Origin: an uncultured virus (IMG/VR IMGVR_UViG_2687453124_000003)
Lineage: Duplodnaviria; Heunggongvirae; Uroviricota; Caudoviricetes
Virus record (IMG/VR): IMGVR_UViG_2687453124_000003
DNA length: 64,000 bases
Strand: one strand, 5' to 3'
A program made the position numbers and the translations under genes. The notes beneath the pieces are model-generated. The model was given only the letters and a program-made list of their open reading frames with translations, was not told the origin of the DNA and did not search any database. Every line of letters begins with the position of its first letter. The stretch's first letter is position 1. Shown here piece by piece: positions 7,000 to 63,808 of the stretch.

Positions 7000-7023
7000 G
7001 TGTGCACCATTCGTTCGGACATC

Positions 7024-28176: not shown

Positions 28177-30146
28177 CAGTCACCGACTTGGCTCCCGCCG
28201 CAGATCAAGAGCAGATGGCTTTCCCTGTCGCAGCCCCTGCAACCAACGAGCCACGTGCACTGCGCGAGTTTCAGATCGAAGCCGCCGATGCGGTATGCGC
28301 TGCCTACAACCGTGGCGTCGTGGGACCGGCGGTCGTGCTGCCGACCGGGACGGGAAAAACGACCGTCATCGCAGAGCTGGCGCGCCGTGAGGTGACCAAC
28401 AGCGGCCGGGTGCTGCTGATGGCACACCGCGACGAATTGATCAAGCAGATGGCCATTGCCGTCTCAGCGGTGAACCCGGCCGGCCCCGTCCCCTCGCTGA
28501 TCGGAGGAGACAATCGCGATGACCCGACTGCTCAGATTGTCTCGGCCACAGTGCAATCACTACAGACTGAGACAGCCCTAGCCAGAATCGGGCACCGCGA
28601 CCTCGTCATCGTCGACGAGGCCCACCACGCGCCCGCCCGGACCTACCGCAAGGTGCTCGACCACTTCACTGCTCTGGGCGCGCGCCGCGCCGGATTCACC
28701 GCGACGATGATCCGTCACGCCCCGAGCAGGGACGAGCCCGCCTTGAGGACCATCTGGGAAGAAGTGGTTTTCGAGCGGGACATCAACTGGGCCATCGAAA
28801 ACGGCTTCTTGATCGCGCCAGAAGGCGTGACCGTTGAACTCCCGGAACTTGATGTCTCGAAGCTGTCCTCCGGTAGTGGCGGAGACATCTCCGACGAGGT
28901 CGCCGAAGAGGCGATGATGCGAGAGACCACGCTAAACGCCACTGTCGAGGCGGTGTTGACACGCACCGAGGGCCGCTCGTCCATCGTCTTTGGCGCTTCG
29001 TTGTTGCACTGCGAGCAACTAGCCAAGTCCCTTGTCGAACAGGGTGTTTCCGCCGAAGTGGTTGTCGGAGAGACCAAAACCCGCGTCCGTAACGGCATTT
29101 ACAACCGATTCCGACACGGGAGCACCCAGGTGCTGGTGACGGTCGACGTGCTCACCGAGGGAGCAGACTTCCCTCGCTGCGAAGCGGTCGTGCTGGCCAG
29201 ACCGACGCGCAGCCAGTCCAGGCTTGTCCAATGTGTAGGGCGCGCTCTGCGGCCACACACCTTCGAAGACGGAACCGTCAAAGACACCGCTCTCGTCGTG
29301 GACCTCGTGGGCGCCGGATCCCTCGGGCTGATCGTCAAGACCCGCCTGGACCCCGAACACCGCGAGAAGCCGGAGAGCGACGAAGACGGGTTCGGTTGCT
29401 TCTGCCAGCAGCCCTGCACAAGTGACGAGTGCGACTTCTCCTGCACCGGAATAGGTTGTGAATGCAACTGCACGTGTGCGAACGAGTCGTCTGAGTCAGG
29501 CCCAGCCAGCGACCCCGTGTCCAGTGTCCCCTGCACATGCACATGCACGCTGACCTTCGGACTGTGCCGTTGCGGTTGTGAATGCGACCTGCACCGGGTA
29601 GATCCGCTGCGGACTTTCGATCCGGTTACCGGCGACGTCCTAGCCGCCGGAAAACAGCGGCGAGGCGACTCCAGCTGGTCGCAGCGCACCTCCACGATCC
29701 GCTGGGTACACCACCCCCGCGGCCTCGTGCGCTCGGTGTACCGCGCCAACGGCCACAAAGGCGTACTGATGCTCGCCGATATGCGTGGTGTCGCGGGGAC
29801 CGTCGCGGGCCGTGATTGGGCCTTCGGATTCTTCGACAGCACGGTGCACCGCATGTTCTGGGTCGGCCTCGATGGGCAGTGGACCGAACCGGGTCCCCGG
29901 TGCTACCTGCAAGGGCTGAGCCTGGCAGAGGCAGACGCGCTGGCGCAGAATATCTTTCCCGATCACATGCGTGATCTCCCCCGCGCAAAGTCCTCCGATG
30001 CGCAGATCGACTTCGCGTCACAATTGGGAGTCCCCGACGCCGGCCAGCTCGACCGCCGTGACCTCAGCGACCTGATCGCACTCGCCCAAGCCGAGAAGTG
30101 GCTCCCGGCCTTCCAGCGCCCCGGCGCCGTTGAAACCGCAGCTTGA
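28173..30146 (+). CDS. SF2 DEAH-box helicase (Res/UvsW/Irc3-like) with Cys-rich insert
   Basis: LREFQ, LPTGTGKT, DEAHH, GFTAT, LTEGADFP, QCVGRALR. Confidence 0.9.
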   Translation: MTVTDLAPAADQEQMAFPVAAPATNEPRALREFQIEAADAVCAAYNRGVVGPAVVLPTGTGKTTVIAELARREVTNSGRVLLMAHRDELIKQMAIAVSAVNPAGPVPSLIGGDNRDDPTAQIVSATVQSLQTETALARIGHRDLVIVDEAHHAPARTYRKVLDHFTALGARRAGFTATMIRHAPSRDEPALRTIWEEVVFERDINWAIENGFLIAPEGVTVELPELDVSKLSSGSGGDISDEVAEEAMMRETTLNATVEAVLTRTEGRSSIVFGASLLHCEQLAKSLVEQGVSAEVVVGETKTRVRNGIYNRFRHGSTQVLVTVDVLTEGADFPRCEAVVLARPTRSQSRLVQCVGRALRPHTFEDGTVKDTALVVDLVGAGSLGLIVKTRLDPEHREKPESDEDGFGCFCQQPCTSDECDFSCTGIGCECNCTCANESSESGPASDPVSSVPCTCTCTLTFGLCRCGCECDLHRVDPLRTFDPVTGDVLAAGKQRRGDSSWSQRTSTIRWVHHPRGLVRSVYRANGHKGVLMLADMRGVAGTVAGRDWAFGFFDSTVHRMFWVGLDGQWTEPGPRCYLQGLSLAEADALAQNIFPDHMRDLPRAKSSDAQIDFASQLGVPDAGQLDRRDLSDLIALAQAEKWLPAFQRPGAVETAA

Positions 30147-30178
30147 CAGACCGAGCACGAAACGCAGGAGGAGGACCG

Positions 30179-31174
30179 ATGTCGATGACGCAGGAAGTGC
30201 GTGACGAGTTGAGTCGCGCCACATCAATACACCAGGGGTGCAGGCGTGTTCAGGTCGCAGCTATCGTCCGACTCGCTGGTGAGCTTCGTGTCTCCCGTAC
30301 CGGGCTGACGGTGCACATCGAGGTCGGCACCGGTGCCGTCGCGCGGTACCTGCGCCGGGAAATCGCAGCGCTGTATGGCCACAAAGCAGTAGTGATCGTG
30401 AACAGCGAAACCGGATTGCGCCGTGGTGCCCGTTACACGGTGCGCGTGAGCGAAGGTGGGCGTGATCTCGCCCTACAGACTGGTCTCATCGACCTGCGCG
30501 GCCGGCCCGTCACCGGGCTACCCGCGATGGTGGTCGGCGGATCACCGGGCGAGGTCGCCGCAGCCTGGCGCGGCGCCTTCATGGTCGCTGGATCATTGAT
30601 CGGACCGAGCCGATCCAGCGCGCTGGAGATCAGCTGCCCCAACCCCGAAGTGGCATTCGCGCTGACCAGCTGCGCGCGCCGGCTGGGTGTTCAGTCGATG
30701 GTGCGCACGGCTCGTGGCATCGACCGTGTCGTGATTCACGACCATGACAGCATCGGAACGCTCTTGACCCGAATCGGTGCAGACGAGTCGCGCATCTCCT
30801 GGGAGCGGCGAATCGCTCAGCGCGCAATGCAGTCGACCGCAATCCGGCTGGTCAACCTCGATGACGCCAACGCGCGTAGATCAGCACGAGCAGCGGCAGC
30901 CACGGCGGCCAAGGTGAAGCAGGCACTAGCGATTTTGGGGGCAGAAGCACCCGAGCACCTGGTGCACACCGGACAGCTTCGCCTGGATCACCGCGAGGCA
31001 TCTCTGGAAGAGCTTGGGCAGCTCGCCCAGCCGCCCATCACCAAAGACGCTGTCGCAGGCCGGTTGCGGCGGTTGCTCATCATGGCCGACCGCCGCGCCG
31101 CCGGAGAAGAGCAGGACGAGTTCGATTCAGAGCGCCCCGACGGTGGGGCCGTCCGACTCCTGGCAGGTGCGTAA
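30179..31174 (+). CDS. whiA: WhiA-family DNA-binding protein, copy 1
   Basis: MT.EVRDEL, AAWRGAF..GS, LEI.CP, NLDDAN.RRS, SLEELG....P.TKDAVAGRLRRL; GGAGGAGG RBS. Confidence 0.9.
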   Translation: MSMTQEVRDELSRATSIHQGCRRVQVAAIVRLAGELRVSRTGLTVHIEVGTGAVARYLRREIAALYGHKAVVIVNSETGLRRGARYTVRVSEGGRDLALQTGLIDLRGRPVTGLPAMVVGGSPGEVAAAWRGAFMVAGSLIGPSRSSALEISCPNPEVAFALTSCARRLGVQSMVRTARGIDRVVIHDHDSIGTLLTRIGADESRISWERRIAQRAMQSTAIRLVNLDDANARRSARAAAATAAKVKQALAILGAEAPEHLVHTGQLRLDHREASLEELGQLAQPPITKDAVAGRLRRLLIMADRRAAGEEQDEFDSERPDGGAVRLLAGA

Positions 31175-32989: not shown

Positions 32990-33958
32990 GTGAATCCACT
33001 GACGCAACAGGTCAAATACGAACTGAATCGTGTACTTCCGTCCGTCAACGACAAGCCTTCGACCAGACGTGCGCAGGTCTCAGCGATGCTGCGCTTCGGC
33101 GGCGGGTTTTTCAGCGAGTGCCGCCGCTGCTGGATCGACGTCGAGCTCGATACGCGCGAAGCCGCGGTGTTCTTGCGCGACGAGATCACCAAGCTCTTCG
33201 ACGCGGCGCCGCGCGCGTTCGAGCTCTCGGCGGGAACCTTCAAGGTGCGCCAGATACATCGCGCCCACAACCTAGCGGTGCAGGTGGGCCTGCTCACCCC
33301 GTCGGGTCGACCGGTGGTAGGGATGGCGCCGACGGTGGTCGCCGGCACACGCGCTGACGCGGCAGCCGCACTTCGCGGTGCGTTCTTGGCACGCGGACAG
33401 ATCATCACCCACGAGCTCCGCCGACCTCGCCTCGAGGTTGTGTGCCCGACTGCCCCGGCGGCGATGGCACTTGGTGGGTTCGCCCGCCGCCACGGAGTAC
33501 AGAGTCAGATGCGCGAATACACCCGCGACGGAGCATCTGTCGACGTATTCGAGATTCGCAAGACCCTGGAGATAGGCATGTTCCTCATAGCCGTGGGAGC
33601 ACCCGACGCTGCGCACACCCTCATGAGCACGCACCGCGAATCGATACGTGTCGAGAACCTCGAGGCTGCCAACAGATCCAGGTTCATCCAGGCAGCACAC
33701 GACCAAGCCGAATCAGTGGGGCGTGCGCTCCGAATTCTCGGCGATGACGTGCCACCGCAGCTGGCCGAGGCGGCGCGACTACGCCTGGAGAACCCGGAAG
33801 CCAGAATGAGCGAGCTTGCAGCCAAGGCCGATCCCCCGATCACCAAGGACGCCTACGCCGGCCGAATCTGGCGCCTGCTGCAGCGCGCCGAGGAGCGCGC
33901 GAGGTCACAAGACGTAAGCGAACCGGCAGCAGTTTCCGACAATGCTGCCGTTCGATAG
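32990..33958 (+). CDS. whiA: WhiA-family DNA-binding protein, copy 2 (more divergent)
   Basis: LT.QVK.EL, LRGAFLA.G, LEVVCP, NLEAAN, LRL.NPEA...EL....DPPITKDAYAGRIWRL. Confidence 0.8.
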   Translation: MNPLTQQVKYELNRVLPSVNDKPSTRRAQVSAMLRFGGGFFSECRRCWIDVELDTREAAVFLRDEITKLFDAAPRAFELSAGTFKVRQIHRAHNLAVQVGLLTPSGRPVVGMAPTVVAGTRADAAAALRGAFLARGQIITHELRRPRLEVVCPTAPAAMALGGFARRHGVQSQMREYTRDGASVDVFEIRKTLEIGMFLIAVGAPDAAHTLMSTHRESIRVENLEAANRSRFIQAAHDQAESVGRALRILGDDVPPQLAEAARLRLENPEARMSELAAKADPPITKDAYAGRIWRLLQRAEERARSQDVSEPAAVSDNAAVR

Positions 33959-39522: not shown

Positions 39523-40089
39523 TCACGTCAGCTCCTGCGCTCCGGGATGCCCTTCCCCGGCTTCAGCCTCCTGGTGTAGATCCTTGGCGATCCGGGCAGC
39601 TGCACGTAGACCCATCACGGAGTAGGCGATCACCGACAACCCCCACAGGACCAGCATCGCGTACCGGATTGGGTCGAGGTACTCAGGACCTGGCGTCGGG
39701 ATTATCAGTGCTAGCGCGCCGATGGCGGCATATAGCGCAAACGCCAACCCGCGGGAGGTGCGCAGCCATTGCCGACTTGCGAGGAATGGTCCGGCCAGCA
39801 GCCCGATGCCGAATGCGAAGACGAAGGCGGCCCAGCCGAGCACAGCCGAGAAATCATGAATCATGTCGTAGCTCGACATACCGAAGCGATCACAACCCAC
39901 ACGCCGCGGATCGTCGTACTCAAGTGCGCATAAGAACTCGCTTGTTCGTGTGCGCACTAACCAGCGCAGAGCCATGAACAGCCCGGTCACCGCGCTGAAC
40001 ACCAGCGATGCGATGGCCAGGTCCGACGCGGCGGGATCTCGTCCTTCGCCGCTGGATCCGCTTGGAACAACAATGGGAATCGGAATCAT
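39523..40089 (-). CDS. Multi-pass membrane protein
   Basis: About four hydrophobic segments. Confidence 0.6.
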   Translation of the reverse strand: MIPIPIVVPSGSSGEGRDPAASDLAIASLVFSAVTGLFMALRWLVRTRTSEFLCALEYDDPRRVGCDRFGMSSYDMIHDFSAVLGWAAFVFAFGIGLLAGPFLASRQWLRTSRGLAFALYAAIGALALIIPTPGPEYLDPIRYAMLVLWGLSVIAYSVMGLRAAARIAKDLHQEAEAGEGHPGAQELT

Positions 40090-40493
40090 TGGGTCTGCCT
40101 GCTTTCGTGTTTGGTGTAGATGTATGGGCCAGCGCCAGAATCGACGATCACAGGTATTCCCGCGGCGTCCGCCCGCCTGACGCAGTCCCAGGTACCGCGA
40201 GAATCCGCGTCAGGAAAAGCAAGGCAGACGTCGGCACCAAGGTCGACCATCTCTTGGTTTCGCAAAGGGCCAGCGGCTTTACCGTGTACTTGCCACGCCG
40301 CTGGATGAGGTTCGACCACGAACCCAAGCCTGTCGCCAATCGCGGCTGCGATGATGTCCGCCCCGCCATAGGGGCATGCACCATGCACCACCGTCACCGT
40401 TCTCGGGTGGAGATCGGCTGCAGTTTCGCGGAGGGCGGTTTCGATTGTGGCCTGATCTTTCCAGCGGCGACTGCCGGTAATCAGAATGCGCAT
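40086..40493 (-). CDS. DUF2493 / YspA-like SLOG-family protein
   Basis: ILITGSR, VVHGA..GAD, HPA.W..HGKAAGP.RN..M, SRGT..C. Confidence 0.85.
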   Translation of the reverse strand: MRILITGSRRWKDQATIETALRETAADLHPRTVTVVHGACPYGGADIIAAAIGDRLGFVVEPHPAAWQVHGKAAGPLRNQEMVDLGADVCLAFPDADSRGTWDCVRRADAAGIPVIVDSGAGPYIYTKHESRQTQ

Positions 40494-40790
40494 CAGCTCT
40501 TTCCTGCAATCGCTTTGGCCCGGATAGGCTCACCGTCGTCCGGCTCGGTCACGGCGCGACACAGCAGCTCTTTGAGCACCGAGTCTGCGACGCCATCGAG
40601 AACCATTCGCACCACGAAATCAACGTCACCATGGTCGGCGCCGCAGTTCTTCTTGTGACACTCAGGAAACCGCCATTGCACATCCGCGCGGCTTAGCGCG
40701 GTCGCATAGATGGCCTGCCGAACGCGTGGCCACAACGCCATATCGCCCACGAGTGGTGGAGTTTTGACCGCCCCGCTGTCGACGCCGCCG
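40493..40790 (-). CDS. Hypothetical protein
   Basis: Distal part of ORF 40493..40999; start approximate. Confidence 0.35.
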
Positions 40791-40791
40791 G

Positions 40792-41142
40792 TCATGCTGT
40801 GTCCGCTGTGGATTCGCACACTCTGGCCACGCGACGAAGGCCACTGCGGGTCCGGTGTTGTATCACAACTTCGAACGTGAGAAAGAGGGTGCCGATAAAA
40901 CTTGCCGCTAGTGGCGGAAGTGCCGTACAGGTAAAGGCCAGAAGGCCTATTTCGAGTACAAAGATGCCCGCCTGATTGGCCGCACCGATGCGGCGCCACC
41001 GTCGATAGTCCTGAGCTCCGGCGTCATTAGCTATCTGCGAAAGCGCGAGCGTCGCGCGCTCTCGTGGAGTGAGTCGGAATAGAGAAACCGCCACCGCGCC
41101 GTCCATGAAAGGCACGAGGCGTGACCGGACGCGGACGCTCAC
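40792..41142 (-). CDS. Small membrane protein
   Basis: Two hydrophobic segments; 4-bp overlap upstream. Confidence 0.45.
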   Translation of the reverse strand: MSVRVRSRLVPFMDGAVAVSLFRLTPRERATLALSQIANDAGAQDYRRWRRIGAANQAGIFVLEIGLLAFTCTALPPLAASFIGTLFLTFEVVIQHRTRSGLRRVARVCESTADTA

Positions 41143-42997: not shown

Positions 42998-43024
42998 ATA
43001 TGCCGTCACACAGCGGTTCGCCGA

Positions 43025-43675
43025 TTAGGCGGCGGACGTCGTCCACCACTGGAATTGGCTGATGGCGGCTTCACGAAGGAAGCCGATCACCTGCTCGACG
43101 CTGTATCCAACGGCGGCGTATCCCGAGTTCTGATCGTCCAGCGCTCGCAGAACCTTCGCGTCGTTGTCATTGTTGGTAGGGACCTTGATCGCGACACCGG
43201 TAACCGCCTGTTCGCCGCGCTGGAAGCAGGTCACCAGTTCATTGCGGATGTTCTTCTGCATGATCGTGATGTTCTTGGCCTCCGTGAACTGACCGGTGGC
43301 CGGATCAAGCACGATGTAGTCGACGGTCGGAGCCATGACCTGCTCCTTCTCGTACTTGCTGGTGCGCTGAGCGATGCCCAGAAGCCGGAAAAGGATCGGC
43401 TTGTTGAAGTGCTCTTCCGGAATTCCGCCTCCGCCACTATTCGGGATAACGCCGATATTGGGTGCGACAGAACTGACGCCCGCGTAACCCGCCGGCAGAC
43501 CGACAGGAGCGGCGGTCGGCACGGCTGCAGCTGCCACAGGCGCCGCAGCGACGGGGGCAGCGGCAGGAACAGCGGCCGGTGCTGGAGCTGCGGCCACCGG
43601 GGCGGCTGCCACTGGAGCGGGGGCTGCTGGAGCGGCTGCCACAGGAACAGCGGCAGGAGCGATAGGAGCGGTCAT
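43025..43675 (-). CDS. Ala/Pro-rich N-terminus plus beta-rich domain (possible phage-type ssDNA-binding protein)
   Basis: PVAAAPA repeats then a globular domain; AGAGG RBS; function is a guess. Confidence 0.55.
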   Translation of the reverse strand: MTAPIAPAAVPVAAAPAAPAPVAAAPVAAAPAPAAVPAAAPVAAAPVAAAAVPTAAPVGLPAGYAGVSSVAPNIGVIPNSGGGGIPEEHFNKPILFRLLGIAQRTSKYEKEQVMAPTVDYIVLDPATGQFTEAKNITIMQKNIRNELVTCFQRGEQAVTGVAIKVPTNNDNDAKVLRALDDQNSGYAAVGYSVEQVIGFLREAAISQFQWWTTSAA

Positions 43676-44078
43676 GGTAGTGCCTCTTTTCTGGTGCTGT
43701 TGAGTTGCTGTTGCTGATCTATGCCGGTGTGGATGCATCGTCGACGGGCTTCCCTACCTGTCGAAGATGCATGCATCCGTGCCGACTGCCTAACTATTTA
43801 CACCCCATGACAGACAAGCAACTGAGACGGCAAATGCCGGTTTTCTCGGCGTGTCGCGGCTTCAGTAATGCCCCTTACACCGCGCGAAGACCGCTGTGAT
43901 GTAGGGGTCGTTGACGTAACGCACGCGGTTGTCATCGGCCTGGCTGTGCGCCGTTTCAGGATCAGACAATGTCAGCTCGTACAACTGGTGAAGCCTCTGC
44001 AGCCGTTGCGGTTTGGTCGCAGGTGACACGTGCGCCGTCTATGCGCATCGGCGACCGTAGCCTTGCTCAGCGCGGCAC

Positions 44079-44732
44079 CTACACCAGGAATCGGTATACG
44101 TGCCCTGGCCGGCCGGTTGGCGCTGGCTTACGCAGCTCCTCGGTTCGGCGGTATAGCGGTGAGCGGTCCAGCCGCTTACGGGCTGCGCCCGCGGTTGTCG
44201 GGCCGCAGACACCGAGCAGCGCGCGAACTTGGGCGAGGGTGGTCTCGTCGCCGAGCATGGCGCGTGTGGTGTCCGGGTCGACCAACAGGCGCTCCCCCAG
44301 GCGCAAGATGGCCGACCGTGCGATCGCCGTGTGGCCGAATGGCATTGCCTCCGGCATCTGGGTCACTGGCACAGCGCCCCTGACCTCGGCGGGGACACGG
44401 GCCACCACGACGATAGATACGGTGTGTCCGCGTTCGTCGCGGTCCGGGTCGCTGACGACGTCGACGACAGCGATGCCGCCGGTCACCTCAGTGCCGGCTT
44501 TGTCTCGCACGATGCGCTGCGCGCACTGCTCGACGGTCTCCCCCTCCCAGGCGGCCAGCAGCCCACCAGGCAAGGTGATTTCACCTTTGTGCGGTGCACC
44601 GGCACGTTCGATCAACACGATCTTCGGCTCAGGGTCATCGGTGAGTGCAACGACGTCCACGCTGAGCCAGGTGCCGTGCACCGGATGATCTCCTGCGCGT
44701 ACGGCCAGGTTCGATTCGGTCATCGATCTCAT
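44079..44732 (-). CDS. nrtR: NrtR-family Nudix/wHTH transcriptional regulator
   Basis: SVDVV, LPGG, degenerate Nudix box, DPDRD.RG..VS, MPFGH, C-terminal TGRPGHVYRF. Confidence 0.75.
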   Translation of the reverse strand: MRSMTESNLAVRAGDHPVHGTWLSVDVVALTDDPEPKIVLIERAGAPHKGEITLPGGLLAAWEGETVEQCAQRIVRDKAGTEVTGGIAVVDVVSDPDRDERGHTVSIVVVARVPAEVRGAVPVTQMPEAMPFGHTAIARSAILRLGERLLVDPDTTRAMLGDETTLAQVRALLGVCGPTTAGAARKRLDRSPLYRRTEELRKPAPTGRPGHVYRFLV

Positions 44733-46303
44733 GGCTGCTGCCTCCTCGAGTGGCTGTAACGCTGATAGACACCGGTCTCACGGGTCAACGTTTCGCGCAC
44801 TTCGGTGAAGCTGTATTGCCGCAACAGCTTTCCATCCTCGAACACCAGCTTCAGTTCGTTGTCGGCTTCCTGATCGGCATCGGCGTGTTCGATCAGGTAC
44901 GGCTCGCCGCTCATCGCGCGTCGCACCGCCAATCGTCCGGTAGCCGACTTCTTGGATCCGTCATCGGTGACCGGGTCTTTGAGGATGTCGTGGCCGACAC
45001 CGTCGATCTGAACCCATGTCGCCTTGACGGCCAGCTTGAAAACGTCGCGTGTTTGGTATTGGTAGGTGTAGGAACCGAAGCCGAAAACCACAGTGGTGGA
45101 GGCATAGCCCTGCACCATCAGGTTCCGCGTGATCGCGTCAGCGCGCTCAAAGGTGATCGAATCCCCATAGATCGCGCCGATGTGAGGCTCCAGCTCGCGG
45201 TACCCCTTTGCGTTGGTCACGGTGCCGAACGTCTCGGCTAGCAGGTTCACCACGCCCTTGCGAGCCGGACTACCTTCGGGCGCAGCTGGATCTCCGCACA
45301 GGATCAGCTCAGGGTCACCGCTGTCGGGCCGGATCACGAGCTTGCCGTCGCGGGCCATGATCTGTTCCTTGCGCGCGGGCAGGTACTCGGTGAGCACCCG
45401 CCACAGATCCCAGGTGTCGGAGACGACCGACAGGATTCCTTCGGGATACAGGCTCAGCAGCCGATCGAAGGTCGCCAGCTCGCCGTCCTGTCCGCCGGCA
45501 CACATCACCGAGTGCTCGGTCGCCGGAACCGATGCGCCGATCAACGCTTCGCCGTTGCCGGGATAGAACCGTTCGATGAACCGGATCGCGGGCAATCCGT
45601 CGGTGCCCGTGAAGCTGATCAGGTGGCCCGCACCTGACGCGGCCGCCGCTGCGTCTCCAGCCATGCCCCGGTAGGAGAAGTCATGGCCCTGGAACTGCAC
45701 CGCGGTTTCATCGCCAGACTCAGCAGCGCGCTCGTCGAGCAGCTTGCGGTTGTTCCAGGCGATGGTGGCACTGGTGATCGGCTGCCACAGCTCAGCCGAC
45801 AACTGCGTCTCGAAGTAGTTGGTCAGCCAGAAGAACCGGGAATCGGTGTTCTCCACGGTTAGATACGGAACCCGCAAAGGTACTAGCGATCCTTCCCGCA
45901 CCGCCCGCACACGCAGTGGCAGGTAGCCCAACGTGTGTAGGTCGCGGAAGTGCTGAACGCCAACCGTGTTCGGTCCCAACAGCGCGGTCACAAACCGCTC
46001 ATATCCGGCCAGCACCGGTTCGAGTTCGTCGGCCGTCAGGTCGAAGAACACCTGCCAGTCTTGTGTCAGCCGTTGCAGATACGCCTGCAGCCCGAAGAAG
46101 ACCGTCGCATTGATACCTGGCACCCGTGTACCCCGCGCGGTGAGGTTGGAGTACACGAACTCGGTTCCGTCCGGGTACTGGCGCCGGTGGTCGAGCTTAT
46201 AGGCATCGGTGGCCAGCAGCGTGTCCAGCGCACGGTTCTGCTTGTCGTTCATCGGTTCCCCCTGTGTGTTGGTGTTGTCGGCGGTCCTGGCCTGCGTGTT
46301 CAT
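44729..46303 (-). CDS. nadV: Nicotinamide phosphoribosyltransferase family (NadV/NAMPT or Namat)
   Basis: [59 protein letters not shown]; 4-bp overlaps on both sides. Confidence 0.9.
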
Positions 46304-46710
46304 CGTTCGTCCTCTGCTATCCATTGACGGGCGATCTCGCAGAGCGCGATCCACACGGCGTCTTTCACACGCTCTTCCCAGCCCAGTTCGTTGAACGGGA
46401 CCATGTCCGGATGTGTCTTCGCAGCTACATCACGCACAGGGCCGTATGTCCACCCCAGCTGCTCGTACGCATGCCACCAACTGTCGTGCGCCTGTTCAGG
46501 CGTCGTATACCGGTCGGGGCCCATCATCTTCTCGGTGATTTCCAGGAACTGCGCCCGGAAATGCTCCTCGCGCGCCGACCAGGGCTCCGGTACGACGGGC
46601 GCATTCACCGCGGCGGCCTGTAGCCGTGCGGCCTCGTAGACGAAGATGGCTTGTCGCTCAAGCAGAGTGCCGTTGGTCGGCCATTCGATGGCAGCAAAAT
46701 TCTGAGTCAT
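46300..46710 (-). CDS. RyR-domain protein
   Basis: H..W......GW.YG...D...KTHP.MVPF.EL...E..KD is the RyR repeat signature. Confidence 0.8.
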
Positions 46711-47594
46711 TTCGGTTCCTCGCTGATGTTGTGCAGGACGTCGAGCACGTAGCGGCCAAGTGGGTGGATCTGTACCGCCGCGCCCTCAGGTGATGTCACG
46801 GCGGCCGCTACTGCCGAGCGCAGCGAGTCGGTGGTGTGGATGCTCCGGTAGTTGTCAGTCAAGACGTCGGTGCCCTTGGTGAACCCGCCGTGGGTGATCC
46901 ACAGATCAAGCTCGAAGCCGGCACCCAGCCCCTGAGCCAGCAGCGCGAACGTTCCACCGCCGTCGCAGATGTCATCGACCACCAAGTACCGGCCCGGTCG
47001 ATCCTTCACCTCAGCGGGGGCGTTGTAGCCCAGAAGTTGTCCGGTGGCGGGATCGCGCTTCTTGTCGGCCACCGACACCGGCAGCTCTAGCTGCGCGGCG
47101 ATTGTGCTCGCGCGCCGCAGCGAGCCAGCATCCGGACCGATCACCCCGAGGTAGTCGCCAGCGTCAACCGCCGCAGCCACGACGTCCGACATGTCGATGA
47201 CATGTACTGCGACCGTGGGGTTGACCGCGCGCAGCGTGTCCAGCCACACCGGTGAGTGCGGGTCGATGGTGATGATGCCGGTGATTCCTGATAGCGCGGC
47301 CAAGCGCGCGTTGGTGTGCGCCGGGCAGGGCGTGTCTTTGTCGCCGCGGGCGCTGGGCAGGAACGGCATCACCAAGATCCGGTGCGGGTGCGCCGCTGTC
47401 AGAGCTGCCCAGTTGAACACGACGGTCCAGTCCGGCGCCGCGGTGTGCACCCAGAGAACCTGCACACCCGGGACGAGATCTGCCCCAACGATGGAGCGCA
47501 CCGTCAGATCACCCATGGGATAGGCGAATACCTCAATCGCTGCTGCGCTGAGCCGTCCCTTGTCATAGGCGAAGAACTCGTAGTCGTTCGTCAT
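46707..47594 (-). CDS. Ribose-phosphate pyrophosphokinase-like protein (Prs/Adps)
   Basis: MPFLP.AR.D, IDPHS, PDAG...[24 protein letters not shown]. Confidence 0.85.
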
Positions 47595-47602
47595 AGCAGA
47601 GA

Positions 47603-47645
47603 CCCTACACCACTTTCGTACATTTTGTACGTAAGTGGTGTAGGG
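47603..47645. promoter_or_regulatory. 43-bp palindrome upstream of the Prs-like gene; candidate NrtR operator or hairpin
   Basis: CCCTACACCACTT-T-CGTACA-TTT-TGTACG-T-AAGTGGTGTAGGG. Confidence 0.6.
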
Positions 47646-47654
47646 CTCGGATGA

Positions 47655-48110
47655 TCAGCCGAACAGAACCAGCGTCACAGCGACCGGCGAAGCCTCTGCG
47701 ACCTCACGAATGATCTGCTCGGCCACGACGGGATCCAGACCGCCGATACCGCCGCCGATAAGTGGTAGCGCGACAGAACCGATCCCCTGCTTGTGCGCCA
47801 GGCCTAGCCCCTGAGTCAGAGATGCGCGCAGCCACTGCTCGGTCGCATCGGGACCTGGCTGATTCTGACTCGCACAGTGGATGATGGGGCGACCCAGCCC
47901 GGCGTCACGACCCGTGTTACGGGTGAACACAGCCGAGCCGGGCGTGATCCGCCCCTGCTGCGCAAGGATGACGTACTGAGTCATCGCGTCGGGATAGCGG
48001 TCCGCCATCACCGAGGCCAGGCCCCCGGTGACGCCCTGGCAATTCACTCCGTGCGCCAATGCCTCAGCTGGATGGGCGAACAAGTCGCCGGTCTCGACGG
48101 TGAAGCTCAT
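47655..48110 (-). CDS. Macrodomain protein (ADP-ribose binding/hydrolase, DarG/Poa1-like)
   Basis: GDLF, AHGVNC.G..GG.A, SVALPLIGGGIGGL. Confidence 0.85.
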   Translation of the reverse strand: MSFTVETGDLFAHPAEALAHGVNCQGVTGGLASVMADRYPDAMTQYVILAQQGRITPGSAVFTRNTGRDAGLGRPIIHCASQNQPGPDATEQWLRASLTQGLGLAHKQGIGSVALPLIGGGIGGLDPVVAEQIIREVAEASPVAVTLVLFG

Positions 48111-48155
48111 CGATGCCTCCTCAGACTGGGGGACGTGACGTTACATTCGACCTGA

Positions 48156-48947
48156 TCATGCGGCATCGGGGTTCTCATCGTCTTCTTCATCCATTCCGAG
48201 GGAGACGGCTACGGGGACTTCCGGGTCGTCAACGTCCAGATCCGGGTGATACGTGTGCGCAGACAGCACCGCTCGAAACACCCCGGCACACGTGAGAGTG
48301 ACAATCGATGCTGGGTGCTCTCGCGTGTACAGCTCGACGGGTTCCTTGAATACCGCGGCGATAGCGCTCATCTTCTTGATCACGTCCGAGCCGAACGCCT
48401 GGACCTTGCCGACCTTCAGCGGTGCCGTCGTCTGGTCGTCACCAAGACCGCGCGTGCTCAGAATTTCCTTGGCGCCGCGGGCCGACAGTCGAGAGATCGT
48501 CGATGCGATCGGGAAGTCGTCGACGTCTTGCAACGGGATGTAGTGCCGCGAGTCCGCTTCTCCCGGGGCTCCGTCGGTGAGTGTGCGCATGAGCAGCGTG
48601 GAGCCGTTATCGACGACCGACAACTCGACATCACACTGAGATTCCTTGTCGATCTTCTTGACGGCCGACGCCGCGTTCTTGGCTGCCGACAGCAACTGGG
48701 AAGCCTGATCGGTCGAGAACTTCACCAGAGGCAGCGTTCCGTCACAGCCGAAGATCGCTTGCCCCGGACTGTTTCCGTCCGAGGCGATGAACGCCAAGCT
48801 GTTCTGCGTCCCAACTTCGCCGGTCTCGACGCGCGTGGAGCCCAGTACGACAGCGGCATGTGTGGGGTCATCGTTGCCTGCATACGCCATGACCTTGGCT
48901 GCTGAGAGTCCTTGCACGAATAGTTGGTTGTCGATAACAACGGTCAT
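48156..48947 (-). CDS. Divergent DNA polymerase III beta-clamp-like protein (about two domains)
   Basis: A..DDP....V.L, L.FIASDG, DFP segments echo beta-clamp domains II-III; start MTVVID with GGAAAAGGA RBS. Confidence 0.45.
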   Translation of the reverse strand: MTVVIDNQLFVQGLSAAKVMAYAGNDDPTHAAVVLGSTRVETGEVGTQNSLAFIASDGNSPGQAIFGCDGTLPLVKFSTDQASQLLSAAKNAASAVKKIDKESQCDVELSVVDNGSTLLMRTLTDGAPGEADSRHYIPLQDVDDFPIASTISRLSARGAKEILSTRGLGDDQTTAPLKVGKVQAFGSDVIKKMSAIAAVFKEPVELYTREHPASIVTLTCAGVFRAVLSAHTYHPDLDVDDPEVPVAVSLGMDEEDDENPDAA

Positions 48948-49095
48948 GTCCCGTCGTCCTTTCCCTTGATCGAACAGCGCCTGGTTGTTCACGCGTTGTG
49001 TCCGCGCTAGATGAAGCGAGCCGCAATCTAGGGCTGATCGACCGACGATCCAGACAGCGGCGCGTTGCCGGAAATGCCCGAGAGCACACCCACGA

Positions 49096-49383
49096 TCACG
49101 CATCGCTCAAATCGCCCCTATCAATTGCCCCGCTGACCGGTGTCATCAGCAGATCCGATCCAATGCGGATCCGGGTCGTGGAGTTGTCTCCAACGCGCGT
49201 GCGTACGCGCAAGACTGCCGTTGCCCCGGATTCGCTCAATGTCACGCTCAGAGGTGCGCTCAGTGCGTCGATCAGCACCTCGCTCACACGACCAGTCAGA
49301 AGCCCGCTCAAATCTGCAGTCAATGCTGCGATACGGACTAAACCGCCACGGCGGAACAGCTTTTCGCGCTCCTGCACGATCAC
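49096..49383 (-). CDS. Hypothetical protein
   Basis: 95-aa ORF. Confidence 0.35.
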   Translation of the reverse strand: MIVQEREKLFRRGGLVRIAALTADLSGLLTGRVSEVLIDALSAPLSVTLSESGATAVLRVRTRVGDNSTTRIRIGSDLLMTPVSGAIDRGDLSDA

Positions 49384-49564
49384 CGCTCAGATGTCCGCCC
49401 AGGCTTTACATCGCTCAGCTGCATGCTCAATTCGACGATACGAAACCTCCAGCCGCGGCCCGGCGCACGAAGACCGTGAATCGGGGACGTGACATGCATA
49501 GCGACGCGGCCACTGTCGTGTCGCGTGCGATCCGTTTCCGGGTTCCGCCGCACACTGCGCCACC

Positions 49565-50341
49565 ATGAGCTCGCTGAAATCTCCACCCGAAAACGACAAG
49601 CTGCTGAGTCAGCTCCTACAGACGCTGTTCGCGCTGGCCGCCGTGGCGGTCATTGTGGTGCTGATCGTGAACGGCACCTTGTTCGGCAAGGACAACCCGA
49701 TATCGTCGGAGCTCAGCAAAATCACCGGCCAGGAACAACGCGATGACGGAGCGCCACCGAGCGCATCGACGATAAGCGGTACCGGAACTCCCAGTCCTGA
49801 TCCATCGACACTGACCGTCGCTGCGCCCGGATCCAAAGATGGATACGCCCGAGCACGATTCGGACAACCGTGGACAGATGACGTCGACATCGAAGGTGGG
49901 CACAACGGCTGCAGCACCCGGGACGATATTTTGCAGCGCGACCTCACCGGCATAACCCTTTCCGGCTCATGCAAAGTCATGTCCGGAACACTTGCCGACC
50001 CGTACACCGGGCAGGTCATTTCATTCGTCTACGGCAAGAAGACATCCGCTCTCGTACAGATCGATCATCTGGTGAGTTTGGCGAACGTCTGGATCTCCGG
50101 CGCAGCGACCTGGGACTTGCCCGAACTCAAGAAGATCGCGAATGATCCACTGAATCTGCTTGCCGTCAACGGATCTTCAAACGAGAGCAAGGGCGAGAAA
50201 TCAGCCGATCAGTGGCTGCCGGAAAACACAGCTTTCGACTGCACGTACGTCAAGCGGCAGGTGATGGTGAAGAACAAGTACCGGCTGACAGTGACGGCTG
50301 CCGAGAAAGCCACCATGCAACAGTTCTACGGCGCCTGCTGA
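49565..50341 (+). CDS. Membrane-anchored DUF1524/HNH-like nuclease
   Basis: TM helix; DPYTG, QIDHLV, SGA..W, ANDP.NLLAV..S.N.SKG, WLP. Confidence 0.85.
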   Translation: MSSLKSPPENDKLLSQLLQTLFALAAVAVIVVLIVNGTLFGKDNPISSELSKITGQEQRDDGAPPSASTISGTGTPSPDPSTLTVAAPGSKDGYARARFGQPWTDDVDIEGGHNGCSTRDDILQRDLTGITLSGSCKVMSGTLADPYTGQVISFVYGKKTSALVQIDHLVSLANVWISGAATWDLPELKKIANDPLNLLAVNGSSNESKGEKSADQWLPENTAFDCTYVKRQVMVKNKYRLTVTAAEKATMQQFYGAC

Positions 50342-50397
50342 ACGGCTCGACGTGCCGTACCCTTCGGCCTCATTGACCGGGATCTACGGTGCCCGCC

Positions 50398-51132
50398 ATG
50401 ACAAACACACTTACGCGTTTAGCCGCTGTCGGGTTCAGCGCCGCCGTCGCGCTCCCGGCTGTCGGATGCCAACAACAGCGGCCCAGCGAGAACACGGCGG
50501 CCAGCGCTTATGTTTCCGCGACGGCAGGAGCCGAAACCCACCTTGATGTGAACCAATTGATGAATGCTGCGATAGCAACAGCCCGGGCGATGCGGTCCGC
50601 ACACCTGAGGTTCTCCAGTACTGGAGTTACAGATCTGCTGGCGAAGGCCTACGCCGCTGACGTGACCCTCACCCCGACCGTTGCAGCGCGGGGAAACGCC
50701 ACGCTGAAGATCAACGGAGACTACAGCCAGACGCAGTTCCAGACCGTAGAGGCGGATTTGTGGATCCAGGACGCCAACGGCACATTCGTCGATACCGGGC
50801 CGGCGCAAGGCACTCTGAACCCTGCGGCCCTCTTGGACCCACAACACGGAGTCGCCAGTGTGCTCGCCGCCGTGGCATCTCCTGTAATTGTCGATCCCAA
50901 GGCACACGCCGGTCCGGACGAGGCTGTGAAAGTCGCTGGGACTTTGTCCGCAGCGGCAGCCAGCGTGCTGGTGCCGCGGTCCTCGCTGGGAGCGGCTACA
51001 GAGTTTCCGGTGGCCGTATGGTTGGCTCCAGTCGACCCGCATCCCCTTCTCCAGATAATCGTCACCGTCGGTGAAGGATCACTGACCCTCAGAGCCGATA
51101 GGGCCGAGCCTTTCGCCGTTGCGGTTCCATAG
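50398..51132 (+). CDS. LppX/LprAFG-family lipoprotein
   Basis: Lipobox AVGC; SAHL, ADVT..P..AARG, P.ALLDP..GVA..L. Confidence 0.7.
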   Translation: MTNTLTRLAAVGFSAAVALPAVGCQQQRPSENTAASAYVSATAGAETHLDVNQLMNAAIATARAMRSAHLRFSSTGVTDLLAKAYAADVTLTPTVAARGNATLKINGDYSQTQFQTVEADLWIQDANGTFVDTGPAQGTLNPAALLDPQHGVASVLAAVASPVIVDPKAHAGPDEAVKVAGTLSAAAASVLVPRSSLGAATEFPVAVWLAPVDPHPLLQIIVTVGEGSLTLRADRAEPFAVAVP

Positions 51133-62115: not shown

Positions 62116-62189
62116 GCGCCTCTAGCTCATCTGGCCAGAGCACCTGACTCTTAATCAGGGGGTACGGGGTTCGAGACCCCGGGGGCGTA
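62116..62189 (+). tRNA. tRNA-Lys(CTT)
   Basis: Cloverleaf; CCTGA-CTCTTAA-TCAGG; TTCGAGA T-loop. Confidence 0.9.
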
Positions 62190-62194
62190 CGTAG

Positions 62195-62675
62195 CGTGAC
62201 GTGCGGTGGAGTAGACCGCACACGTACCAGCGGGTGGTGCCGGGTACTGGGTACGCGGCCAAGGTGCCGCAACCGACCACCAATCGGCTCCTACCCACTC
62301 GCAGATTCTTCCGGTGTCAGAACCGGTTGGGGTGTGGGGACGGCACCCATAGGCGCGAGGTATACCGCCAACCGTCCACGGCTCGATTGCTCCGATCCCA
62401 CTCCTCCTTCGCAAGGCGGAGCGGCGCGGCATCTCACCGCGAAACGACAACCCGTTCACCCAGTAGGGGCACCTAACGGTGAGCGGCACGGTGCAGGGTA
62501 AGACACCTTCGAGTGGGTCGAATCAGAGAGGGACACCGGCACACCGGTGTGGCGCCGTGGACAGACACGGGGGCGATAATGCAGCCCTTGACGGAGCAGG
62601 AGCCGCCTCGTTCTGGCGGCAGGCTAGAAATCCGAACACCGAGTGGTCCCGTCGGGCGCAACAATCCGGGACACT
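62195..62675 (+). ncRNA. Large structured RNA, GOLLD-like candidate
   Basis: About 480 nt between tRNAs, many short stems, no credible ORF; GOLLD RNAs are known from mycobacterial tRNA arrays; boundaries approximate. Confidence 0.5.
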
Positions 62676-62747
62676 GCGAGCGTGGTCCAATGGCTACGAC
62701 CTCAGACTTCCAATCTGATGATGCGGGTTCGATTCCCGTCGCTCGCT
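62676..62747 (+). tRNA. tRNA-Gly(TCC)
   Basis: GCGAGCG/CGCTCGC acceptor; TCAGA-CTTCCAA-TCTGA. Confidence 0.9.
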
Positions 62748-62900
62748 CTTGGTGCCCACGACGGTGGGTAGGGACAGAGGACGGTCCCTTCGCCACGGGG
62801 TTCGATTCCCCGCGTTGGCTTCGGCCCGCGGTGCGGAACTGGTGATGCCAGCTGGTCGGTGCCAGGTACCGGATCACTGCCGACCTTCTCCAAACATCTC

Positions 62901-62985
62901 GGCCCTGTGGCGAAACATGGCAGCCGCGCCGGATTCAAACTCCGGTGTCCGACAGGACGTGTGGGTTCGATTCCCTCCAGGGCTA
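62901..62985 (+). tRNA. tRNA-Leu(CAA)
   Basis: CCGGA-TTCAAAC-TCCGG; long variable arm GTCC-GACA-GGAC. Confidence 0.88.
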
Positions 62986-63003
62986 CCGCGTCCGAATGAA
63001 CAA

Positions 63004-63075
63004 TGCCTTGTGGGGTAATCGGCAGCCCACTGGATTTTGGCTCCGGGAGTTCAGGTTCGAGCCCTGGCGAGGCAG
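63004..63075 (+). tRNA. tRNA-Gln(TTG)
   Basis: TGCCTTG/CGAGGCA acceptor; CTGGA-TTTTGGC-TCCGG. Confidence 0.85.
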
Positions 63076-63101
63076 CAGGTCGGCGGACCCGAAACGCACA
63101 T

Positions 63102-63173
63102 TGCCCGGTGGTCTAACGGCAGGACTCCTGATTCTGGATCAGGTCGGTGGAGGTTCGAATCCTCCCTGGGCAG
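63102..63173 (+). tRNA. tRNA-Gln(CTG)
   Basis: CCTGA-TTCTGGA-TCAGG; GGAGG-TTCGAAT-CCTCC. Confidence 0.9.
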
Positions 63174-63286
63174 CATCGCGAATTCCACTGTGCGGAGTTA
63201 ATCGCCCGCGTGGCAGTGGTCTTCGCAGGTGGCGTTCCAGGAGCATGTTCGACGCTATGGCCCCATTCCAGGATCGCCGCCACAAC

Positions 63287-63363
63287 GCCCTGATAGCTCA
63301 GTCCGGCCAGAGCGGCTGCCTTGTAAGCAGTGTCCGTCGCCGGTTCGAATCCGGCTTGGGGCT
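63287..63363 (+). tRNA. tRNA-Thr(TGT)
   Basis: GCTGC-CTTGTAA-GCAGT; GCCGG-TTCGAAT-CCGGC. Confidence 0.85.
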
Positions 63364-63383
63364 CTCCTGCGCCTTCGGGTGTT

Positions 63384-63458
63384 GCCGCCATAGCTCAGTG
63401 GCAGAGCGCTTTCTTGGTGAGAAAGAGGTCTCGGGTTCAACCCCCGATGGTGGCTCCA
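63384..63458 (+). tRNA. tRNA-Thr(GGT)
   Basis: CTTTC-TTGGTGA-GAAAG; encoded CCA. Confidence 0.85.
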
Positions 63459-63598
63459 CGGTTGTCGGTGACCAGCCCGCTGCGCGAGCGGCACGCGGAA
63501 CCGTCAGACTCGGCACTCCTCTGCCCACGCAGGGGTCATTGGCTGGCTAAGCCGCACCGAGCAAGTCAGCTGCAGCTGGCCGAAAGGCGTGGGTGTCT

Positions 63599-63674
63599 GT
63601 GGATGTAGCGCAGCTGGTAGCGCGTCTCGTTGCCAACGAGAAGGCCGCGGGTTCGAATCCCGTCTTCCACTCCA
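63599..63674 (+). tRNA. tRNA-Gly(GCC)
   Basis: TCTCG-TTGCCAA-CGAGA; encoded CCA; one T-T mismatch in the acceptor stem. Confidence 0.88.
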
Positions 63675-63808
63675 GCACTTCTCCCCTTCGCGGGAGGTGT
63701 GGGGGCTGGTTCCGGCCCCGGCGTCAACGGAGGGTTCGCGTGGACCCTGTACCGCCCGATTGAGGTTGGCGGACGCAGAGCGCAGGTAACCCCTGTGGCA
63801 GGACACAT

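Follow-up and report, generated by a model that had tools for sequence, protein, structure and literature searches.

NARP1, the pathway in which Adps and Namat rebuild NAD+, and the enzyme RyDEP are known from earlier descriptions as weapons that phages turn on NAD-depleting and Thoeris immunity. In the accessible text of a 2026 preprint (bioRxiv 10.64898/2026.05.28.727677), RyDEP cleaves the Thoeris signal molecules 2'cADPR and 3'cADPR, two isomers of cyclic ADP-ribose (cADPR), to linear ADP-ribose (ADPR); in the phage DyoEdafos its gene is located within the NARP1 operon, and Adps, RyDEP and Namat together turn 2'cADPR into NAD+ in vitro. We describe here a locus with homologues of all three genes, at positions 44,079 to 48,110 of a 64,000-nucleotide stretch of DNA (the window) filed as an uncultured virus, IMG/VR record IMGVR_UViG_2687453124_000003. 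It appears probable that its genes adps-rydep-namat-nrtR make up a self-repressed four-gene operon, which would quench the Thoeris signal and restore NAD+, carried on a plasmid-like element with a type VII secretion system (T7SS).

NARP1 is also found in bacteria. In the accessible part of Lan et al. (2026, PMC12774641), the pfAdps and pfNamat enzymes of Paenibacillus foliorum are active in vitro and against an NADase system; the accessible portion of a 2024 preprint counts NARP1 469 times in Acinetobacter, enriched outside mobile elements, and that of the original NARP1 preprint speaks of bacterial copies and of ADPR-dependent transcription in general terms only. A separate literature concerns NrtR. 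As far as its accessible text goes, the study of Rodionov et al. (2008, PMC2330246) defined this regulator, reported that the binding of Shewanella NrtR to the prs-nadV promoter is relieved by ADPR, described regulated operons of the order nrtR-prs-nadV in Shewanella and prs-nadV-nrtR in Acinetobacter, and read the enzymes as a salvage route through phosphoribosyl pyrophosphate (PRPP) and nicotinamide mononucleotide (NMN). In the literature that we searched, the terms NrtR and NARP co-occur in just one paper, where no connection is made between them.

Adps, RyDEP and Namat homologues in one operon

An original prediction, made from the DNA letters alone, had proposed a regulated NARP1-like operon extended with macrodomain, RyR-domain and NrtR genes on a non-phage element. 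Direct reading of the sequence, together with Pfam, NCBIfam and PHROG scans, bore out the layout on which it was built, namely five genes, three 4-bp overlaps and a macrodomain gene 60 bp upstream (Table 1); the overlaps are ATGA start/stop junctions that chain adps, rydep, namat and the Nudix gene. As in DyoEdafos, adps and namat stand in one operon with only rydep between them.

The Prs-like protein scores 61 bits on the housekeeping model TIGR01251, the cut-off of which is 113, and it matches the phage family phrog_619 (Table 1). Its pyrophosphate (PP) loop is identical to that of DyoEdafos Adps (gp77), an Adps that has been used biochemically, and fits the Adps donor site D212-D213-I214-C215-D216...F221, with its remodelled PP loop, as given in the accessible text of the Adps structure paper (PMC13586617). 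It also carries the motif ADKKRD, which provides the hairpin lysine characteristic of Adps, and is 41% identical to gp77 overall. These features point to an Adps-type enzyme, predicted to convert ADPR and ATP to pyrophosphorylated ADPR (ADPR-PP) and AMP.

The NAMPT-like protein contains an exact instance of the Namat clamp-helix consensus GS-X-Phi-X-Phi-X-Phi-TRD, where X is aromatic, as stated in the accessible text of PMC12774641; at this position the NadV of Haemophilus ducreyi reads GAQTYQRNTRD, and that of Ralstonia has no match. It scores 483 bits to the Namat crystal structures 9W5W/9W5X, compared to at most 246 bits to canonical NAMPTs, and is 56% identical to DyoEdafos gp79. We therefore class it as Namat-type by sequence, with the predicted reaction of ADPR-PP and nicotinamide to NAD+. 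The proposal that the pair is of Adps/Namat type, rather than housekeeping Prs/NadV, is thus borne out by motifs, scores and the phylogenies described below. The reported absence of an NMN adenylyltransferase holds as well: no cytidylyltransferase-type Pfam family was found among 95 window open reading frames (ORFs) scanned (5 + 41 + 49), which take in all those of at least 150 aa.

An ungapped alignment with DyoEdafos gp78 (RyDEP) gives 75% identity for the RyR protein. In the accessible text of the RyDEP preprint (bioRxiv 10.64898/2026.05.28.727677), H75 and D117 form the catalytic dyad of the enzyme, W78 and H100 are ligand residues, and other homologues tested bind without cleaving. All four residues are invariant in the four proteins that we aligned, those of the window, of its orthologue at a related locus (L003) and of two phages. 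The window protein can thus be regarded as a RyDEP homologue and a predicted 2'/3'cADPR glycosidase, for which cleavage, beyond binding, is likely because of the 75% identity and the retention of the dyad. The original prediction had recognised the RyR gene but gave it no role, although its product is so close a RyDEP homologue.

A divergent NrtR-family regulator

An AlphaFold (AF2) model of the Nudix gene product, built from 37 homologues and with a predicted local distance difference test score (pLDDT) of 87.9, has an N-terminal Nudix domain followed by a C-terminal winged helix. Foldseek matched it over its full length (210-222 columns) to the NrtR-family factor AraR of B. thetaiotaomicron, to S. 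oneidensis NrtR in both its DNA-bound and its DNA-free form, and to 2FML, with E values of 2.6e-13 to 2.9e-11; phmmer aligned residues 16-213 with 3gz5. The Nudix box reads R73-I-V-R-D-K78, K78 being invariant in 37 of 37 sequences. Compared to the Nudix-box consensus, with three catalytic glutamates, two of the three are replaced, and the box is called degenerate on this basis. Judging from its model, the protein is a divergent NrtR-family member with a catalytically degenerate Nudix domain. The NrtR-like gene that had been predicted is thereby confirmed as having a true NrtR-family fold, to which a plausible operator can be added (next section). An active ADPR pyrophosphatase, or one half of a NadM-Nudix enzyme, was considered and rejected, since the catalytic box is degenerate and the NrtR fold complete. 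As nrtR is the last gene of the operon that it would control, autoregulation is implied.

A candidate operator at a predicted leaderless promoter

A 43-bp palindrome, which had previously gone unmentioned, nearly fills the 60-bp gap between the macrodomain gene and adps. Its core is GT-N9-AC, and its half-site recurs elsewhere in the 64-kb window only as two chance-level matches with three mismatches. In mycobacteria, promoters place a TANNNT -10 box some 7 nt ahead of the start, and mRNAs are often leaderless. The hexamer TAGGGT conforms to this pattern (Table 1), and no Shine-Dalgarno sequence fits between it and the adps ATG; given its distance of 7 nt to the ATG, a leaderless adps transcript would be expected to start at or near 47594. 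A sigma-70 consensus scan, which does not cover mycobacterial -10-only promoters, called no promoter; no Rfam family was found in 43000-49500, and no T-tract terminator was called at the palindrome.

The promoter region was then compared in 20 related loci with an intact adps start, plus that of the M. avium plasmid pS2b (L002). With the window counted, 21 of 21 loci have a TANNNT box that precedes the adps ATG by 6-7 nt, compared to 3 of the 191 mechanical ORFs of at least 100 aa in the window. With at least 8 matched arm positions and at most 1 mismatch as the threshold, 14 of the 20 related loci have a palindrome at about -50 to -14 relative to the adps ATG. L014 has an imperfect one at the same position, and a common upstream box, TGATTTGCGAGAAA, takes its place in L002, L007, L009, L010 and L012. 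Four types of palindrome can be distinguished by lineage, ...CACCACTTACGTACA-AAA-TGTACG..., ATTTCTCACA-WTT-TGTGAGAAAT, ATATGGACA-TTTA-TGTCCATAT and ATAYGGGCA-AWTA-TGCCCRTAT, and their distribution follows the branching of the protein trees. Where the outer arms of the window and of L003 differ, the changes are mirrored, so that the symmetry is kept. The 43-bp palindrome is therefore a plausible candidate operator of the NrtR-like regulator.

Representation of the operon in RNA libraries

Contigs assembled from RNA libraries cover the operon in three runs (X1, X2 and X4) from two studies. Those of X1 span 44535-47574 in three pieces at a depth of 45-68, those of X2 span 44534-46903 and 47145-47575 at a depth of 85-168, and a single X4 contig spans 43511-47572 at a depth of 94. 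Without exception they stop 19-22 nt inside the adps ATG (47572-47575). The macrodomain gene has a depth of 0 in X1 and in X2 and of 4-8 in X4, compared to 45-168 over the operon. This pattern fits a transcript start at or near the adps ATG and a separate, weak expression of the macrodomain gene. Raw RNA from a further run (X8) yielded 39 reads, half of them partial, too few for start or strand.

Features of the locus

The coordinates of the genes and promoter elements are collected in Table 1.

Table 1. Positions of the five genes and of the intergenic elements in the window
Feature	Position	Strand	Length, matches and remarks
Macrodomain gene (macro)	48110..47655	minus	151 aa; PF01661 (Macro) E 2.8e-11
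Gap between macro and adps	47654..47595		60 bp
Palindrome	47603..47645		43 bp; arms 47603-47622 and 47626-47645, 20 nt each, 3-nt centre, 95% complementary
TAGGGT (TANNNT -10-like hexamer)	47602..47607	minus	7 nt upstream of adps ATG; on coding strand, right arm of palindrome runs into hexamer
Prs-like gene (adps)	47594..46707	minus	295 aa; Pribosyltran PF00156 E 1.8e-6; phrog_619 E 1.8e-42
RyR-domain gene (rydep)	46710..46300	minus	136 aa; RyR PF02026 E 1.1e-8
NAMPT-like gene (namat)	46303..44729	minus	524 aa from ATGA-overlap start; alternative ATG 46252; NAPRTase and NAMPT_N; NF006629 513 bits; phrog_448 596 bits
Nudix gene (nrtR-like)	44732..44079	minus	217 aa; NUDIX PF00293 E 1.3e-9

Downstream of nrtR, an inverted repeat with 19-nt arms (43730-43775, 84% complementary) lies at the start of a 237-aa Ala/Pro-rich ORF. 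On the other side, a 315-aa ORF (48156-49103, minus strand) lies directly upstream of the macrodomain gene. Its nearest protein-atlas clusters are viral and bacterial, DNA_pol3_beta_2 being annotated on 28% of the members of one of them, and its product may be beta-clamp-like from residue 38. It was considered as an ADP-ribosyltransferase partner of the macrodomain gene and rejected, as neither Pfam nor PHROG nor PADLOC assigned it to a family; in view of this lack of a family match and of the beta-clamp-like lead, a toxin-antitoxin pair was no longer considered.

Relatives and evolution of the operon

Relatives of the Nudix gene were fetched from species-representative genomes, which gave 38 loci. 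Synteny was counted on the 22 of mycobacterial type (L003-L024); the 16 non-mycobacterial ones (L025-L040), with a Nudix-domain match only and no adps or namat nearby, were set aside. All 22 loci have namat immediately upstream of the Nudix gene, and adps is present in 21, L006 starting inside namat and L011 retaining only remnants. At the latter locus (Mycobacterium sp. 050134, 6257-7651) the Nudix gene is intact next to remnants of adps (67 aa) and namat (160 aa), a decayed trio. The adps-namat-nudix trio is found in many mycobacterial chromosomes. The regulation that had been predicted for the operon is not special to the element, given these chromosomal trios and the NrtR-controlled prs-nadV operons known from 2008.

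Maximum-likelihood trees were built from tblastn segments, with 30 rows for Namat and 27 for Adps. L003 branches together with the window, and L004 and L005 join them next, all inside a clade of 22 rows of mycobacterial type (support 80/96 for Namat and 97/100 for Adps), which in the Namat tree stands apart from four actinophage rows (100/100). Identity to the phage proteins is 74-77% for RyDEP, compared to 36-43% for Adps and 55-56% for Namat. Because RyDEP is so much more phage-like than its two neighbours, it would seem that rydep moved independently of them, entering the same slot in two NARP1 operons that had diverged.

RyDEP is rare: of 50,697 phage records, 4 hold a full-length homologue (two records for DyoEdafos, one each for Aegeus and Baudelaire), and none of 72,556 plasmid records does, there being 2 partial matches only. 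A close orthologue is present in 1 of 401 family genomes, that of L003, and distant RyR proteins in 6 more. The regulator has no homologue in mycobacteriophages (the 50,697 phage records gave 3 weak matches, all non-mycobacterial), and one in PLSDB, on pS2b. As for the synteny across plasmids that had been suggested as a check, adps, namat and the Nudix gene are together on pS2b, and neither RyDEP nor the macrodomain is at that locus. The Adps and Namat segments and the upstream DNA are identical between pS2b and L012 (M. kyorinense), and because of this identity we take the two to be the same plasmid-borne locus in two species.

The macrodomain gene

The AF2 model of the macrodomain protein (pLDDT 92.3) was matched by Foldseek at ranks 1-7 exclusively to DarG and TARG1 structures, with template modelling (TM) scores of 0.77-0.86; the M. 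tuberculosis DarG macrodomain 5m3i (TM 0.85), T. aquaticus DarG and TARG1 were at the top. PADLOC DarG is matched with an E value of 1.3e-17. By its modelled fold the protein is of the ALC1-like class (DarG/TARG1/SCO6735). It is not a DarG antitoxin: it has Gln82 at the Lys position, consists of 151 aa of macrodomain only, and scores 55.7 bits, compared to 250, on the DarG equivalog. No DarT partner (DUF4433) was found among the window ORFs scanned.

Its family, known from Mycobacteroides and Mycolicibacterium, comprises stand-alone proteins some 148 aa long, in which Gln82 is invariant (21 of 21 members); in one HMMER alignment, this residue aligns to the first Lys of the DarG PTKK stretch. 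In the accessible text of PMC9411070, the Streptomyces coelicolor protein SCO6735 has Gln85, a required residue, at the position of the DarG/TARG1 catalytic Lys, strips DarT-made ADP-ribose from thymidine of single-stranded DNA and protects against DarT. From the DarG alignment and the similar numbering, we infer that Q82 of the window corresponds to Q85. Because the fold is of DarG/SCO6735 type and SCO6735 acts on the DarT product, an anti-DarT or related hydrolase role, with ADPR as the product, is plausible.

The original prediction had made this gene a member of the circuit, for which the link is weak: it lies outside the palindrome-controlled unit, is near-absent from the RNA contigs, and accompanies NARP1 in only 1 of the 22 related loci (L003). 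It has its own Shine-Dalgarno sequence behind the upstream ORF 48156-49103, and probably belongs to a separate transcription unit shared with that gene. The family is present in 1 of 401 family genomes.

The carrier element

The window encodes EccB (E = 8.8e-94), a 1425-aa EccC-like triple FtsK ATPase, further FtsK/SpoIIIE proteins and an SLT-domain protein. It also encodes a DNA polymerase of family A, a helicase and a pair of WhiA paralogues. Among 41 window ORFs, none matched a capsid, portal or true terminase family. The non-phage character that had been proposed for the element agrees with these T7SS-plasmid-like surroundings, and a phage or phage-plasmid was rejected for want of structural genes in that set. 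No relaxase or replication gene was identified in the window. An identical Nudix protein is also encoded on a 5.24-Mb contig, so that the element may be integrated. The labels on close protein homologues are Mycobacteroides abscessus and M. franklinii. When the locus was run against PLSDB by megablast, there was no match; the NAD genes have their nearest PLSDB relative on M. avium plasmid pS2b (NZ_CP076860, 344 kb), which also has eccB. A T7SS-bearing, plasmid-like, non-phage mobile mycobacterial element is a reasonable description of the carrier.

Other cargo is varied. The WhiA-like paralogues (30143-31174 and 32990-33958, both on the plus strand) are 1.8 kb apart, each with all three WhiA domains. 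Nine tRNA genes lie within 1.8 kb at 62116-63883 on the plus strand (one for Lys and two each for Gly, Leu, Gln and Thr), which is unusual for a plasmid-like element to carry. A GmrSD_C/DUF1524-type nuclease domain protein (49565-50341, plus strand) and an LppX/LprAFG-family lipoprotein (50389-51132, plus strand) are encoded between the macro-side genes and the EccC/EccB genes. A YAcAr/YspA-related SLOG-domain protein (40086-40493, minus strand; PF10686 E = 1.1e-11, phrog_289 E = 1.3e-30) is encoded within a minus-strand run, 39523-40999, of otherwise unknown proteins. SLOG domains bind nucleotide ligands, so a second nucleotide-centred module may sit 4 kb from the NAD operon.

Proposed mechanism and alternative explanations

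The sequence and library data show how the genes are laid out, to which families they belong, which motifs and residues are conserved, how the regulator is predicted to fold, that promoter and palindrome are conserved together, and where the operon begins and ends in RNA libraries. On this footing the following mechanism can be proposed, in which the enzymatic activities, the effector, the repression and the benefit to the element are all inferred. A dimer of the NrtR-family protein would bind the 43-bp palindrome and hold transcription down, because the palindrome overlaps the -10 box of the leaderless promoter. Where TIR- or SIR2-type NADases break down NAD+, or Thoeris makes 2'/3'cADPR, ADPR or a close derivative would accumulate, bind the degenerate Nudix domain and release the repressor from DNA. 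RyDEP would hydrolyse cADPR isomers to ADPR, Adps would pyrophosphorylate ADPR with ATP to ADPR-PP, and Namat would join ADPR-PP with nicotinamide to form NAD+, the net effect being that the Thoeris signal is quenched and NAD+ restored. The macrodomain product may add protection against DarT and yield ADPR; its place in the circuit is doubtful.

Several points weigh against this proposal. On the NCBIfam NtrR equivalog the regulator scores 27 bits, compared to a cut-off of 400, and over the Nudix domain only; because of this score and its divergent branch, it is filed as NrtR-family by fold and not as an equivalog. The palindrome is twice as long as the usual NrtR site, which is 21 bp with a GT-N7-AC core in the accessible text of PMC2330246, and its own core has the wider GT-N9-AC spacing; in 5 of the 20 related loci only a half-symmetric box lies upstream of adps. 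Folded as RNA, the palindrome gives a very stable hairpin (-41 kcal/mol, z -7.8) directly 3' of the macro stop codon, and could for this reason be a terminator. The contigs do not prove a transcript start, and DNA carry-over is formally possible, against which the at least 10-fold contrast in depth between the operon and the macrodomain gene argues. The deep contigs of X1 and X2 end at 44535 and 44534, 198 nt into nrtR, the depth passing from 45-85 to 0-9 downstream; this end could be due to attenuation, processing or an assembly break, and in X4 one contig runs through 44534. Since the operon is well represented in RNA libraries without known NADase stress, repression would be at most partial. 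Finally, in several Mycolicibacterium species the trio is on chromosome-size contigs with conserved flanks, and is apparently vertical; such chromosomal trios weaken a purely counter-defence reading. The literature, in its accessible parts, likewise allows that bacterial NARP1 may be housekeeping and reports it enriched in non-mobile chromosomal regions.

These chromosomal trios lead to the strongest competing explanation, which is that the operon serves housekeeping salvage of ADPR and nicotinamide released by endogenous NAD+ consumers, the plasmid copy being passenger metabolism. It is consistent with the trio forming a bacterial clade separate from the phage sequences, with the published enrichment and the housekeeping roles suggested there, with NrtR regulons being classical NAD-homeostasis regulons in the accessible text of PMC2330246, and with the presence of the operon in RNA from cultures without known stress. 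We nevertheless hold it unlikely, as RyDEP has been acquired here, is far more phage-like than the flanking Adps and Namat, and has Thoeris signals as its only known substrates in the accessible text of its preprint (10.64898/2026.05.28.727677); the carrier, moreover, is mobile-looking, and few genomes have Adps-like genes (5 of 401 family genomes at E <= 1e-25, five candidates being scored in each). The current annotation's label corresponds to a different route, classical Prs plus NadV salvage, in which PRPP and then NMN would be made and a host adenylyltransferase would complete the synthesis. The NAMPT-like protein is indeed named nicotinate phosphoribosyltransferase by NCBIfam (513 bits) and is 45% identical to a proven NadV, that of H. 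ducreyi plasmid pNAD1. A section title in the Namat paper (PMC12774641) also states that Namat keeps NAM-PRPP catalysis, that is, of nicotinamide (NAM) with PRPP, in vitro. The chance of this route being the right one is nonetheless very slight: the Prs-like protein falls below the housekeeping cut-off and carries the Adps PP loop, the clamp motif of the window is lacking in the NadV of H. ducreyi and of Ralstonia, no NMN adenylyltransferase is among the 95 ORFs scanned, and RyDEP lies between the two genes.

A further explanation concerns the palindrome alone, which would act as an RNA element, either as a terminator of the macrodomain gene lacking a U-tract or as a hairpin masking the adps start, the Nudix protein being an enzyme or a ligand sponge. 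The hairpin just described would suit such a role; 20-nt arms are unusually long for a transcription-factor site, and contig depth falls sharply across the palindrome. Related loci, however, differ in what lies upstream, some with a divergent gene, and yet the palindrome keeps its distance to the adps ATG, beside the -10 box. There is no Rfam match and no T-tract terminator call, and the Nudix protein has a complete DNA-binding NrtR fold with a degenerate catalytic box, so that we consider this explanation quite improbable. The operator and RNA-element roles of the palindrome are mutually compatible. We retain the self-repressed operon, directed at the Thoeris signal and NAD+ loss, as the preferred reading. 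Its core, a NARP1-type route from ADPR to NAD+ with an NrtR-type sensor on a non-phage element, finds good support in the sequences, the predicted structures, the genome comparisons and the RNA libraries.

Significance and novelty

Each part of this locus was already known, and NrtR-controlled prs-nadV operons, which the original prediction overlooked, have been known since 2008; the mycobacterial clade or its neighbours may be listed in the supplementary tables of the NARP1 papers. What is new is that RyDEP, NARP1 and NrtR are combined on a plasmid-like element of mycobacteria, that the leaderless promoter-operator architecture is conserved, and that an explicit bridge is made between two literatures, that of the NrtR regulon (2008) and that of NARP1 (2024-2026). 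Genes described as phage weapons are found here on a plasmid-like element, under an apparent ADP-ribose-type switch. If the link between NrtR and NARP1 holds, it provides a regulatory logic for bacterial NARP1, with ADPR as the inducer; it suggests that plasmids too, beyond phages, must overcome NADase, Thoeris and DarT barriers, and it offers mycobacterial genetics a compact set of promoter, operator and repressor.

A wider reading can be entertained tentatively, and we would rate it as somewhat doubtful. The locus would be a damage-sensing inducible island, in which ADP-ribose debris triggers RyDEP and NARP1 only under NAD-directed attack; the SCO6735-like macrodomain would strip DarT-made ADP-ribose from the DNA of the element and feed the ADPR pool, and the NrtR prs-nadV operons of Acinetobacter, Shewanella and mycobacteria would be ADPR-induced NARP1. 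NARP1 would then be an ancient bacterial NAD-repair circuit, which phages borrowed and stripped of its regulator.

Comparison with known systems

The closest described system is the NARP1 operon of DyoEdafos (gp77 Adps, gp78 RyDEP, gp79 Namat), with which the window operon shares the order Adps-RyDEP-Namat, an identical Adps PP loop, a Namat clamp motif of the same type, and a RyDEP that is 75% identical with all four residues kept. In contrast to DyoEdafos, the window element is non-phage, its Adps (41%) and Namat (56%) belong to a separate mycobacterial clade of bacterial and plasmid sequences, and its operon adds an NrtR-type regulator and a leaderless promoter bearing a palindrome; no regulator was seen in the 4 phage NARP1 loci that we inspected. 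The P. foliorum genes resemble those of the window in that Adps is upstream of Namat in a non-phage genome; that bacterium is of another phylum, and the accessible text of PMC12774641 describes no regulator, RyR gene or macrodomain there. M. avium pS2b is, like the carrier, a mycobacterial plasmid-type element with eccB, and its adps, namat and Nudix genes are 51%, 75% and 52% identical to those of the window; its locus differs from the window in having no RyDEP, no macrodomain and, upstream, the box TGATTTGCGAGAAA instead of the long palindrome. As for the macrodomain protein, it has the fold of SCO6735, DarG and TARG1 and is, like SCO6735, a stand-alone actinobacterial protein with Gln for the catalytic Lys, whereas DarG and TARG1 carry the Lys itself; its activity is a predicted one.

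The NrtR-controlled prs-nadV operons are similar in another respect, as they combine a regulator made of Nudix and winged helix-turn-helix domains with Prs-like and NadV-like genes and a palindrome in the promoter; the Acinetobacter order prs-nadV-nrtR is that of adps-namat-nrtR in the window. Compared to the gamma-proteobacterial NrtR, the window regulator is 26% identical over the Nudix domain and below the NtrR equivalog cut-off. The window operon also differs in the sequence and length of its operator, its leaderless promoter, the inserted RyDEP and the plasmid-like carrier. We found the prs-nadV-nrtR order in A. baumannii L044 (NZ_CP104448, 1900-5325), where the regulator scores 470 bits on the NtrR model. 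There, the Prs-like protein carries DDICDGGATF and CDKKRDP, which are of Adps type, and the NadV carries GSFTYNYLTRD, which is of Namat type. The promoter contains a 25-bp palindrome, ATATAGTGGCTTTGTGCCACTATAT, of the form ATAT..GGC-N4-GCC..ATAT, with an architecture like that of the Mycolicibacterium type. These motifs suggest that the published NrtR 'prs-nadV' regulons are NARP1.

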